A DNA stretch of 63,695 nucleotides, filler included, from Dugesia japonica (GCA_001938525.1; 6 parts of 6 records of this genome joined end to end with filler, not necessarily neighbours in it); one strand, 5' to 3'. Counted from the whole stretch's first letter, positions 6,301 through 34,401 are shown. Notes: generated by a model not told the origin, from the letters alone. A program made the numbers and translations.

Positions 6301-7118
6301 AAAACTAGTCAAATTAAATTAATCGGTTTTCGTTTGCTGTACAACTTAAATAAATAATATACCATTATTTTAACATTTAAATATTATTGGGCTGAAACAG
6401 CCTTTAGTAAAATATGAAACTTATAGAAGGAAATAAATTAAAGAGTAATAAGAAAATGAATAAAAATAAATAAATAAATAATGAGAAATAAAAGAAATAC
6501 TGATCTATGCAATAATAAGGAAACGATTATTAAATAATAATAACTGAAGTTAAAAAGTGTAAGAAATATCAAACAAAATCTAGGATAAAACAATAAAAAT
6601 GAAATAAAGTTGTAAAAGCTGTCGAGAAAACGAAGAATTGATCAAATATTAAACAATGCAATAATTGAAGATAATCAATAATTAGATGGCTCAGAAAATA
6701 AGTCAAAGTGATCGAAAAAACGAATGTCAATAAAACAAGGAATATCTATTATTATTTATAATTTGTAAAAATGTGTTGAAAATATCCATGCATTAAAAAT
6801 AAAATTATATTGCTGAGAGAAAAAGAAAGATTAAAACAAATAATTTTATTAAAATATTTTGATATTTTAGAGAGAAATTATAGGGGAAAAACAGAATAAA
6901 TCATCATGATCATTATAAATNNNNNNNNNNNNNNNNNNNNNNNNNNNNNNNNNNNNNNNNNNNNNNNNNNNNNNNNNNNNNNNNNNNNNNNNNNNNNNNN
7001 NNNNNNNNNNNNNNNNNNNNNNNNNNNNNNNNNNNNNNNNNNNNNNNNNNNNNNNNNNNNNNNNNNNNNNNNNNNNNNNNNNNNNNNNNNNNNNNNNNNN
7101 NNNNNNNNNNNNNNNNNG

Positions 7119-7435
7119 TAGAAGAAGATCTGATGATTTCGTGTAAGAATTCAGTATTGCGATTTTCATATTTGTATGTGATTATGTGTTTATCTTTATT
7201 TAAAAATTTTTACAAGTTTTAGAAAATTATTATTTTTTAATAAAAATATTATTATTTATAATGAACAAGAAAGAATTATGACAGGAAATTTATATGTAGA
7301 TGAAGGTCTGATGATTTTATGTAAGAATTTAGGATTGATTTNTTTATATTTGCATGTGATGGTTGAGTTATCGCTATTTCTAAAACACTTGCAAGTTTCA
7401 AAAAATTATTATTTTTTAAGAAAAATATTATTTTT
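7119..7435 (+). repeat. Diverged tandem duplication, ~180-nt unit
   Basis: AGA(A/T)GAAG(A/G)TCTGATGATTT..GTAAGAATT...AAAATTATTATTTTTTAA.AAAAATATTATT occurs twice, starting near 7119 and 7298. Confidence 0.8.
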
Positions 7436-29947: not shown

Positions 29948-31948
29948 TGTTGGGGTTTTACCTGAGTTGGATGAAAGAAATCGTGGCTGGGGAAAAACAG
30001 CCCTCAGAAAACCCTTTCAAGAATTTTAATCCAATACCCCTCAGTTGCATAATCAGTGCAGAGCGGTTGACCTTCAACCTTTACGGGAGGTTCAGACTCA
30101 TACACCTTTAATTTGGGTTCATTAATTTCCCTTATAGACACAAAATTAGACAAAAGTTATCAAAAACATCTATTAGCATTACAACTTATATGTCTTCCAA
30201 TACATCAGGGTCTAACCACTGAGTCGGGTCAGTCTCCCAAAAATCAAACGCGGCCATATCGTCGTTATCATTCCACTGCGCCCACACAGGGTTTCCCATT
30301 TGGCTCGACAGATCGGCTATGTATTGCTTCAAGAAATCTATCTTTCGTTGTAATATTTGTTTTTTTTGTACTTCAAGAGCCAATGTTTGGGCAGCCGAAT
30401 CACTCTGTTTTTTGACTATTTAATCTAATTTCTTTATTAATCGGTTCCTCTGGGTGAGATGTCTTAGAAGGACTTCTTCGGTCTTGCGCTTTAAATGGCG
30501 TTCTAACAATAATCGACGCATAATCCGGTGACACCTTCGCAAACTTGTCGGGAATACGATTCGTGTCACTAAATGAAAAGTATAGCTAAGTCGGCTTAAA
30601 CCAATTTTAAAACAGAGAAGCAAATTAGAGTTGATACAATTAAAGCAATTTATTAAAGACAATCTAAATCATAAACGCGATAGCTCACGAGCGGTTGGTC
30701 TGGGTACCTTTATCTACCAAAAGTGGGGGCAACGGCATGGCTGTTTTCAACTTCAGGATATTCTCTATTAACTGATTCTCGCGCTCCTGATATGACTTGA
30801 TGAATTCGGTGAGGGATTCGACTTGTGCCTTCCACACCCTTTCCTTCTTCTGGGTTGCTTCTATCTCCGATTTGAAAGTCAAGCACTTCCGTTTATACCG
30901 TTTAACTTTAGCCTCGGCGGTCGCAGTTTCTGCTTCCCACCGCCGTTTAGAGAGTCGGTATAAATCCCATGTAAGCTCGATGTCCTCGCTGGTTTCACGT
31001 AATTTCTTATTCGGAGCTTGGGATCTATTCAAGGAAGAATGCACTGAAAATACAAATACCATGAAGAAGGTCTGACTCTTAACTGATTTATAATTTAATA
31101 AAAGAAGATAGATGGTTTATGGATAAAAGAAAAACGAATAGCGGGTTGACAATGTTTATTCTATGCAACAACAATACACTGAAACCTCTACAATGTCTTC
31201 TTCGGTATTCTCATTGTTACTATTAGAAGCCTCATTTCGGGCACTCCAAAGGTAGTTCTGAACAAAGGCGGATAATTGAGAAGTGGACGGTAACCGGTTC
31301 GTGGTGACGCGTATTAAAGAAGGTCCATCATGCCACAGCCGCTCTACCTGTAGTACGTCAGCAGATCTTTCGAAAGAAAGTGCAGTTGGAGGAAATGCAA
31401 CTCGATCCCTTCTCGGACCACACCAACTATAGTAGGCACTCCTTTCCGTCGCATCCCACTGCCTTTTATCCATTGCGTACTTGGCGGAGACATTGGAGCG
31501 ATCGACTAGAACGCCGGCGTCACGATTATACGGATTTTGGTATCATTTAAATACTGTTCGTCCCGAATGAATATCCAGACTTACCTCCCATTTGAACTAC
31601 ATAATGCCGATTCTGTCTCGTCGGGATGTTCCACCTGGCCTTTCGTTAAACAGTGTGCTAGTAATTGCTTCAATTTAACGGCACGACGTTGTTGTTTGAT
31701 CCAGTGTAGCATATGGCGTAGCTCCGCTGGCATTTGCTAAAAAGAGAAATAAAATAAAATTCTACCTAGAGACACAGAGCTTAGATGTGGAACATCACTT
31801 GGGGACATACAGCAAAGAGTAATACAAACACAAAGAAAAATTTGTTTACTTTCCATTTCACTCATAAGGTTACAAAAGTAACCGGGATGGGCAGGAGAAA
31901 GCCGAAAATGCCAACCATATTAAGATTGTGGACCGCGATCCCTCAATA
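29948..31948 (-). mobile_element. Nested ~2-kb LTR carrying a multi-exon coiled-coil gene
   Basis: Starts TGTTGGGG, probable other end CCCTCAATA, imperfect TSD ATAA/ATAC; minus-strand ORFs 31156-31473, 30685-31062, 30420-30662 and 30186-30383 with GT-AG signals; homologous to 42040-42821. Confidence 0.7.
30685..31062 (-). CDS. LTR-borne coiled-coil exon ending in DKGTQT
   Basis: Open frame after a ttttcag acceptor near 31044; heptads; the homolog at 42060-42136 ends DKATQT. Confidence 0.6.
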   Translation of the reverse strand: MVFVFSVHSSLNRSQAPNKKLRETSEDIELTWDLYRLSKRRWEAETATAEAKVKRYKRKCLTFKSEIEATQKKERVWKAQVESLTEFIKSYQERENQLIENILKLKTAMPLPPLLVDKGTQTNRS

Positions 31949-34401
31949 ATACTAATAACGATACTGATGACGTGATGCTAATAACGCCAAAATCATGGTG
32001 ATGCTGCTACTATTAACTATTACCTTAGATGGTTAATGACTTTTCCACTCTCAAAATATTATGGAAAATAAATATAATTATGATAACAATCTCTTATTAG
32101 CGGTTTTGTTAACGACCCCAGCGTTGACTAGTGACATTACTTATATAATCTTACTCACAGTAATAATATAACTAAAAATTATAATATTAATACTAGGGGT
32201 ACAATAATAACTAAATTAATAAGTTGGATGGATATAATAAAAAGCGGAAGACCAGTGATGCTGGTAGTTTGATACCTTAATTGCTCTATCTCCAACTTCC
32301 TTTACACATTTACTTTATTTAATTGAACTTATCATTATCCATACTAATTTAACAAGTAGCAAATTTTAAATTTTCTGTAATATTAAAGAAATCAACTATT
32401 ATCTACTTGTTTAGGAATCATAGATTTAATTGTAATCATAATATCTTCCATTCTCATTATTCTAAATAAATTATTTTTAAATTTCTGCATATTGTGAGAG
32501 TCACTTAGTAACTGTTACCTTAGTAGAATAGTCTCGTTTTGCTAAACCGTGTGTGGGAACACACAAACAGAAAATTTTTAGACGTGTGGAAACATCAAAT
32601 GGATGTTGAGATTCTCACAATATGCATGCATGTGCAATCGTCTGTTGTGTTGATTCGTTTCCATTTCGGAGTTTGACGATATGCTATTTTATTATTCATC
32701 AACTAATTGAGATAATCAATATCAAGGTATTTATTCCTTATTCATGCCGAATTACAAAAGACACGAAACTACCACTAAATTAATGGAATTTGCCTGAGAG
32801 TGTATTACATTATTCTTATCGTTGGAGATTTAATTATAGAAATTCTGGGATTTATATCTTTTCAGTATTATTGAAGGTAACTATTTTATCTAAATAAATT
32901 ATTAGCATCTTATTTTTCTTCTGTTTTAATCTTAAACCAATAAATAAGCTTTCATATTTAATTACGATACTTGATTGTAGATTAATATTTATAAGTTTGA
33001 GTGTGGCTTTTAAATGATAAAAATTTTGCAAGGCAAAATGTGCTGTCAGCACCATCTTTTAATAATTGAAAATTAGTAGATTGAAAATTATTTTTCATAA
33101 TTTTATTCATCCAATTTAACAGCTTGTGCTCAATTTAGAAAATAAAAAAAGAAATTATTTAATTGGTAATTTTATTAAGAGCATAATGTTTGTACTTTAT
33201 CATTCAATGATAATAATCACAAATAAAATGTTACTTTTTTTCAATGATAAAAAGGCTTCTGCAACAGTGCTCGCAACCGGTAGTGATTAATACAGTCGGG
33301 TTCCTCGGATAACTAATTTTCTGGTCTAGGATCCACTGTTTATTTTTCTTATCTTTGAACTAAGGTTAATTAATGCGCAATGTATTAGAAATTACTAGAA
33401 AGTTTCCTCCTGAAGGTGATTACTTCTTGCCTGATAATAGTTTTCGTAAGTTAACGAGAGTCCGGTAATTGACCAATAAATACGTTGAATTTCTTTTTCG
33501 TTGAAGAGTGGTGTAAAATTTGTTTTTCGTAAGTTGTCAAAATTAATAGTATAAATTTGTTTTTCGTAAGTTGTTAAAATTAACAGTTATTTTCTGCCTA
33601 AACGGGGGTCCTTTTATAGGATTTGACTTACACCCCGACTTCTTCTAGATTTGCTGATTATTTTTAGATCAGCNNNNNNNNNNNNNNNNNNNNNNNNNNN
33701 NNNNNNNNNNNNNNNNNNNNNNNNNNNNNNNNNNNNNNNNNNNNNNNNNNNNNNNNNNCCTGACAATTGTGTCTTTGTTCTATTTTTATTTTTAGCTTTC
33801 TTATTGGCCCGATCTTCAAGACCCTTCAGCAACCTTCCGGATGGTGGTAAGTTTTTCCTTCTTAACCGTTTCAATGCACCTTGTTGTTTTCTTTTCATAT
33901 TTTCTTATCCGGGTTCTTTCCNATTTCCTTGAGTGAAGTTATTCGGGTAAAGCGGATTTTTNAACTAATTTTGCTTCTTTTTATTTTTAAAATTAATTAA
34001 TTTTCTTTTGTTAATTAATTATTTTCCATACTGCCTTTCTTTGTTGTTTATTATTAATTTAATAATTTTCTTAATTTCCAATTGTAAGTTGCTTTCATAT
34101 TACCCGGTTCTTCGTATTTATCTTTGATTTTATTTCGTTCTTTTTTAATGGTGGTTTCGTGCCTGATATTTCATTATTGGTGACTATATTGGTCCGCAAT
34201 TTTTTTGTTGATTCGGCTTTTCAGCCTTATTCGCGTTTAGCGGGTGTTCCACTCCAACAATAATAATGATAATATAAGATAAAATATCTGATCCAGCACC
34301 AATTTTCACTTAATTTTCCGCTTGTTCCCGGATAATTTCCGTATTATTTGGGGATGCTTTACTAGCTCTTTTGCACTGAAATTATGTGTTCTAGCCCAAT
34401 A

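Follow-up and report, generated by a model that had tools for sequence, protein, structure and literature searches.

Long terminal repeats (LTRs) are ordinarily non-coding. In mouse mammary tumour virus (MMTV), the sag gene lies in U3, is kept by selection, survives in solo LTRs (490 of the 527 sag contigs) and is served by several promoters, according to the data cited from PMC4667437. Among Gypsy elements, the small accessory open reading frames (ORFs) sORF1 and sORF2 of the MDG1 group are under purifying selection, and the transcripts described for them are made without splicing (PMC11952523). The planarian element Burro (GYPSM1) has a CCHC gag, a mononegavirus-like env placed before pol, accessory ORFs and thousands of copies; its total length of more than 30 kb, with up to 25 kb of internal sequence, implies multi-kb LTRs, and the portion of the account that treats its accessory ORFs places them in the internal region and makes no mention there of LTR genes (PMC6431247). 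For the six Schmidtea elements Smed_errantivirus_1-6 (Chary and Hayashi; PMC13524379), the relevant part of the report lists no LTR coordinates or primer site; because the search described in it was limited to 3-kb extensions and an LTR spacing of at most 14 kb, the LTRs of these errantiviruses are undescribed there. Our literature search returned no account of genes in the LTRs of Burro or of errantiviruses; the primary Burro description and Repbase were beyond its reach and may contain one. Here we analysed a stretch of 63,695 nt from Dugesia japonica (GCA_001938525.1), hereafter the window, which joins six scaffolds and has a GC content of 27.7%. Insertions of 3.4-4.3 kb in this window are probably solo LTRs of envelope-bearing Gypsy elements, which would carry selected, mostly coiled-coil small genes expressed as spliced accessory messages. 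The scaffold joins are 100-nt linkers of the form N44-TTAATTAATTAA-N44 (14797-14896, 23592-23691, 35158-35257, 44430-44529 and 55343-55442), and since they separate scaffolds, any pairing of features across them is invalid.

Four insertions were bounded at both ends by identical 4-bp flanks. Element E1 (6385-11118, ORFs on the + strand) reads TATTGGG...CCCAACA between ATAT and ATAT and encloses element E2 (8226-9134, 909 bp, strand undefined), which is flanked by ATGC on both sides, holds no ORF and represents a shorter family sharing the 7-bp ends with the larger units; the flanks that the initial annotation had given for both were reproduced. The outer element A (26642-34401, - strand) reads TGTTGGG...CCCAATA between ACAT and ACAT and, once the inner element is removed, aligns collinearly with the 16074 and 47694 copies. 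The inner element B (29948-34259, - strand, 4312 bp) is flanked by ATAA and ATAA, and its ends are homologous to those at 42821 and 11829. The net sizes were 0.9 kb for E2, about 3.4 kb for A without B, about 3.8 kb for E1 without its nested insert, and 4.3 kb for B. Because B (4.3 kb) is nested in A (3.4 kb), the 7.8-kb unit at 26642-34401 is a composite and not one giant element, as it had originally been described; the ACAT flanks and the splitting of an ATPase gene reported for it were both confirmed. Two candidate pairings were rejected, namely a probable inner element at 29948-31948, whose flanks (ATAA/ATAC) are unequal and for which 34259 supplies the fitting end, and a pairing of 11829 with 16074, between which a scaffold linker lies. 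Identical 4-mer flanks were found in 4 of the 64 candidate end pairs formed from loose motifs on the same scaffold (null mean 0.57, P=0.0016, for an end motif chosen post hoc, after viewing the data), and these four pairs are E1, E2, A and B. A 14-nt signature on one end type occurred seven times in the window and not once in 100 shuffles.

The target of A is a broken gene for an A32-type packaging ATPase. Its 3' part (25955-26641, - strand; Pox_A32, E 3e-6) lies left of A, and its 5' part, a frame with a Walker-A-like motif (34402-34500, right limit approximate, - strand), lies right of it, the two parts reading through the duplicated ACAT in the same frame. We take the disrupted ATPase to be a Polinton gene. 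Polinton-like remnants, comprising the ATPase, an integrase-like piece and further broken ORFs, surround A at 24200-26640 and 34402-35150, and the read depth within them was very high at 26000-26264.

The remaining ends of the window extended the family. Those at 11829, 16074, 42821 and 47694, already listed in the initial annotation, proved homologous to the ends of the bounded elements, and further ends were recognised at 34259, 42097 and about 21306. A B-type copy truncated at the end of its scaffold (11829-14796, + strand) carries the end signature and matches B at 64% over 423 bp, while an A-type end cut by the scaffold start (14897-16074, - strand) is homologous to A, and an E2-like end (21306-21428, - strand) matches the end of E2 at 76% over 125 bp. 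A B-type terminal segment, K (42098-42821, + strand), is homologous to B from about 42098 to 42821 with 57% DNA identity, and consists of the end of exon c, a 91-nt intron-like spacer, exon d/e and the terminus CCAAACA. An A-type copy, D (47694-49850, right limit not found, + strand), contains coiled-coil ORFs at 49425-49843 and a mariner-like insert at about 47830-48950. This insert lies about 137 bp from the signature end, and B lies in A at 138 bp.

The ends of animal Metaviridae follow the consensus TGTTRNR...YNYAACA over about 7 bp (PMC3601003), and the unit ends agree with it, two of them after a single G>A change. Terminal inverted complementarity ends at 7 bp, and the left and right motifs differ in all copies. 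The initial annotation had cited TG..CA ends with a 4-bp target-site duplication as hallmarks of Gypsy; TGT termini and 4-bp duplications are also found in Ginger elements, which are 2.6-7 kb long and have terminal inverted repeats of 40-270 bp and a transposase (PMC2836005). The units might then be non-autonomous cut-and-paste elements, Ginger-like or Pack-type, moved by a Gypsy-like integrase and combining conserved ends with variable gene cargo. They resemble Ginger in TGT ends, duplication and length, and their targets are AT-rich and not CCGG; AT-rich targets are favoured by Ginger2 (PMC2836005). The long terminal inverted repeats and transposase of Ginger, however, were not seen in the units: 40-270 bp of inverted repeat would be expected, and only 7 bp and unlike ends were present. 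No transposase or integrase match was obtained in the frames scanned, although non-autonomous copies would also lack one. Self-blast of the units revealed no LTR-like internal direct repeat apart from a tandem of about 180 bp in E1, and no gag or pol Pfam match was obtained in the ORF-strand frames of 9140-11121 and 26650-32351 or on both strands of 12298-14795, in agreement with the initial annotation for the part of the frames covered. No paired copy was found in the window, as cut-and-paste elements would predict.

Read depth bears on the same alternative. In two DNA runs, the terminal bins had a summed contig depth of 15,000-27,000, the ORFs one of 400-2,700 and the middle of A one of 38-122, compared with 2-45 for single listed contigs, the summed depth being a sign of relative abundance and not a copy number. 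Some run contigs were identical to the window over 200-300 bp, and read strand was too mixed for orienting the units. Unit ends are clearly very abundant, and interiors vary by subfamily. A very high depth at the termini combined with a low depth in the interior is also the pattern of cargo carriers; the ORFs, however, have no host-gene relatives yet are conserved in position between lineages, and an env relic adjoins unit ends. Mobilisation as cut-and-paste cargo carriers is accordingly unlikely, and solo LTRs remain the preferred interpretation of the units.

The ORF regions of the units have a GC content of 0.37-0.48, compared with 0.27-0.32. In E1, ORF1 (9760-10236, + strand) is coiled-coil and has one internal stop and an acceptor immediately 5' of its ATG, and ORF2 (10412-10741, + strand) is also coiled-coil. 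ORF2 is distantly related to exon c of B (score 69 against a shuffled maximum of 48; 22% identity). The ORF of A (27566-27901, - strand) is partly coiled-coil and has an acceptor 3 nt 5' of its ATG. B contains four coding segments, all on the same strand (-): micro-ORF a (31585-31736), in which an acceptor and 3 nt precede the ATG at 31733 and an EHPDET motif follows; ORF b (31159-31602), with two in-frame stops near its start; exon c (30689-31043), with an acceptor at 31044 and the donor GTGAGC at 30688; and exon d/e (30189-30568), a coiled-coil segment 3' of a 120-nt intron-like spacer. The copy at 11829 holds its own micro-ORF a (14405-14587, N gap inside, + strand), again with an acceptor, 3 nt, ATG CCA and HPDET. 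Opposite to it lie an Asn-rich open frame and a short neighbouring frame (13884-14345, - strand) that have no Pfam match. Heptad bias was detected in five ORFs, and exon c of B was modelled as a single 92-residue helix by single-sequence folding. The description of the larger units as holding GC-richer coiled-coil ORFs behind splice acceptors thus stands for GC content and for most ORFs; ORF b is not coiled-coil, and the ATG of E1 ORF2 has no adjacent acceptor.

Relatives outside the window were scarce. A phmmer search of 1.84 billion representatives returned one match to ORF b, P0001, an ENA protein on a 512-bp contig (E 4.5e-9, 50% over 64 aa). A homologue search with exon c of B gave no match, and the ESM Atlas returned for it only generic coiled-coil clusters with recognition below threshold. 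Every Pfam match of the coiled-coil ORFs fell under the curated cut-offs, and no family fits. No homology was detected between the A-type ORFs and those of B or E1, and neither pattern nor protein scans of contigs from metagenomes and viruses returned the unit sequences.

The substitution comparison between B and the copy at 42 kb, which the initial annotation had proposed, revealed coding constraint. When the protein score of B against K was determined for each frame, the same-frame pair scored 211 and all other pairs at most 66. Over 85 codons of exon d/e, pS was 0.78, which is saturated, and pN was 0.36 (Fisher p 3e-8). Because the first alignment had been built on protein, the comparison was redone with a DNA-only alignment, in which identity was 61/103 at codon position 1, 81/102 at position 2 and 57/100 at position 3 (0.59/0.79/0.57), the difference between positions 2 and 3 being significant (p=0.0008). 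This codon pattern indicates that the small genes in the units are under purifying selection. B and K also have in-frame stops at an identical codon position in mid-exon (30420-30422, - strand, and 42366-42368, + strand, respectively), TAA in one copy and TAG in the other, and conservation between them extends past this codon; the internal stop of E1 ORF1 likewise follows a similar K-L-x-K-K stretch. The common stop could be a true gene border with an additional acceptor, or it could be read through.

Splice sites were conserved as well. Acceptor-like words occur at 2.4 per kb in this DNA, and being so common they count as evidence only where they are conserved between copies. Two splice acceptors and one donor are placed homologously between copies. 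B and K have in common a donor that follows D-K-x-T-Q-T and, beyond a spacer of 120 nt in B or 91 nt in K, the acceptor ATTTAG|TG. The arrangement of micro-ORF a, an acceptor followed by 3 nt, ATG CCA and HPDET at +105 nt, is kept in B and in the 11829 copy, at distances from the end of 2526 nt and 2576 nt, respectively.

An envelope-bearing parent is suggested by a gag-env relic (37990-42000, limits approximate, + strand), in which a broken gag is followed by a gB-type env without pol. Its gag has four CCHC-like knuckles, recognised by eye, and no Pfam match. Its env matched Monjiviricetes_fusion in Pfam (E 4e-15 and 1e-10), and 42 of the first 74 aligned residues were identical, by eye, to the env of Smed_errantivirus_4, while a homologue search and the ESM Atlas gave no match for the env piece. 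The gene content and order suggest that the relic comes from a planarian-type GAG-ENV-POL errantivirus. No pol was found between gag and env, after env or in 42822-44429; as the relic is deleted, the missing PR-RT-RH-IN region says little about the parent element. The truncated env is joined to a further signature end of about 100 bp (41970-42097, left limit approximate, - strand), which on the env strand reads ...GTTCTACCCCAACA, a perfect signature. This segment is similar to the end at 47694 (p=0.004, the best of six tests) and has no DNA similarity to ORF c of B (p=0.91). The junction can be read in two ways. Either K is the 3' LTR of the element, with another unit nested in it, and the genes are sense to gag-env-pol, or 42097 is the own 3' end of the env element and the genes are antisense; each reading calls for an insertion plus a deletion, and the assembly may be misjoined here.

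If the genes were antisense, they would form a self-contained unit in U3, read from an antisense promoter within the LTR and ending at a poly(A) signal near the 5' edge of the LTR. Each solo LTR would then keep the whole transcription unit, whose small introns, lying on the opposite strand, would survive reverse transcription. The env relic is directly joined to the signature end at 42097, which may be its own 3' LTR end, and on the env strand the DNA 5' of this end is T-rich, like R-U5; insertion of an A-type unit into the B-type 3' LTR of the env element, followed by deletion, explains the junction equally well, and a match at L-K-L extends the B frame slightly to the left of 42097. The opposite, non-signature end (...AAAACCCCAACA type) has a higher GC content and the greatest read depth, as R-U5 often does, which argues for the sense orientation. 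On the side of the signature end, by contrast, two A copies have AATAAA and hairpins about 330 nt from that end (z of -3.7 and -3.1, and -1.5 in a third copy), again like R-U5, although one A copy lacks AATAAA. A conserved non-coding block of the A-type copies (15715-15800, 29750-29835 and 49105-49190), with two short palindromes and AATAAA or TATA-like words, is a candidate promoter or poly(A) region. On the ORF strand, the far ends of E1 and A also have AATAAA or ATTAAA at a distance of 34-36 nt, and plant Retand elements are reported to have antisense ORFs commonly, which however lie outside the LTR (PMC11963269). We consider antisense genes possible but improbable overall, and of the two orientations we slightly favour genes that are sense to gag-env-pol.

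On our preferred interpretation, a full-length GAG-ENV-POL element would integrate, and recombination between its LTRs would leave one LTR with the duplication intact. Under either strand reading the genes would lie within a long U3, and R-U5 would correspond to the terminal 200-300 bp. One leader exon would serve all the small genes, splicing to alternative acceptors that each lie 0-3 nt 5' of an ATG, as for MMTV sag. The coiled-coil products would be likely to oligomerise and to regulate the element or host silencing. A broader version, which we put forward tentatively, is that in the multi-kb LTRs of planarian errantiviruses four or five small regulatory genes form a conserved array with introns, which may be antisense and have its own promoter and poly(A) site; each of the very many solo LTRs would then seed the host genome with a complete multi-gene expression cassette.

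Several observations weigh against the preferred interpretation. No splice joint was found in five RNA or presumed-RNA runs. Of 63 joints, the 15 shown all came from DNA runs and none had RNA reads, and in the RNA and presumed-RNA comparison GT-AG ends on the ORF strand occurred in 0 of 15 listed joints. In the raw RNA runs X13, X16 and X12, ORF depth was 0-0.4, and one X9 contig crosses the acceptor at 31044 unspliced. The splice phases on the two sides of the c-d intron match in K but differ by one in B, and ORF2 of E1 starts without an adjoining acceptor. Selection was measured on one exon in one pair of copies, and the proposal on protein function is drawn from coiled-coil character only. 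In the window, neither paired LTRs nor a primer-binding site nor a polypurine tract was seen. There is a single env junction, in a deletion relic of a gapped assembly and readable in two ways, and with about ten ends per 64 kb the contact with env may be chance nesting. Splicing is therefore deduced from the conserved sites and was not seen. The initial proposal of solo LTRs with spliced genes is partly supported, by Gypsy-type ends, 4-bp duplications, coding constraint, conserved splice sites and the contact of such ends with an env-bearing planarian-type element, and the spliced transcripts expected from RNA mapping did not appear, there being no junction and ORF depth near zero in raw RNA.

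The three raw RNA runs yielded 271, 18 and 21 reads, nearly all partial and from diverged copies, and two contig sets presumed to be RNA contained relatives over 29 of 30 bins. A run search found no RNA run among the listed carriers of this DNA. Nine X10 contigs depart from B 5 nt into the predicted c-d intron and continue as AT-rich DNA; the edge of exon c is an edge of conservation, and these contigs are not proof of splicing. Piles of raw reads at 29810-29851, which extend into poly-T, were discarded as low-complexity matches. The copies in the window look decayed and silent. They could be solo LTRs with passive ORFs, pieces of an earlier polyprotein or cargo gene that the LTR took up and that no active lineage still splices or expresses: all window copies have stops or frameshifts, no spliced RNA was found, and ORF1 of Burro is described with SMC-like coiled-coil stretches (PMC6431247). 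The amino acids, splice sites and ATG context have nevertheless been kept despite saturated synonymous sites, which requires long selection in the present arrangement and makes passive remnants very unlikely.

Other features of the window are as follows. Transposase remnants found by tblastx at 47830-48950, about 1850-2750 and about 5230-6030 are presumably mariner-like, and reverse-transcriptase remnants matching RVT_1 at 4096-4892 (- strand) and 52700-53632 (+ strand) are presumably of non-LTR type. A GGGTTAA end at 50335-50345, which we take to be of piggyBac type, truncates the region beyond copy D. A dispersed short repeat, MITE-like and with a terminal hairpin, occurs at 11632-11820, 21185-21305, 22131-22243, 44925-45036 and 56268-56521, and degenerate AT-rich tandem arrays occupy 17460-19600 and 36900-37400. 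Host sequence includes an exon at 35319-35648 (+ strand) with a HATPase_c match, which we assume to encode a pyruvate dehydrogenase kinase-like C-terminus, an exon at 879-1659 (+ strand), presumably for a tRNA-synthetase-like C-terminus, and a 553-aa ORF with an AT-hook at 61736-63397 (+ strand).

If our interpretation is correct, a multi-gene spliced LTR cassette would represent retrovirus-like regulatory complexity outside vertebrates, would help to account for the great length of planarian LTRs and would provide candidate proteins for interplay with the planarian PIWI silencing treated in PMC8532177. Such units are also prone to misannotation as host genes or unknown repeats. Compared with Burro, a likeness established by description and not by comparison of LTR sequences, the relic has the same gag-env order, without pol and without the MATH, BIR and BCL2 cargo; it shares gene order with the Smed errantiviruses as well, its env being close to that of Smed_errantivirus_4. 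The sORFs of MDG1 and the antisense ORFs of Retand lie outside the LTR, whereas the ORFs described here lie inside the units. A selected gene that persists in solo LTRs is already known from MMTV sag, and our literature search returned no intron-bearing cassette of several genes in the LTRs of an invertebrate Gypsy element. The sag gene is one gene of a mammalian betaretrovirus, whereas the present units, from an invertebrate Gypsy lineage, have four or five small genes or exons of no known family and a conserved internal intron.

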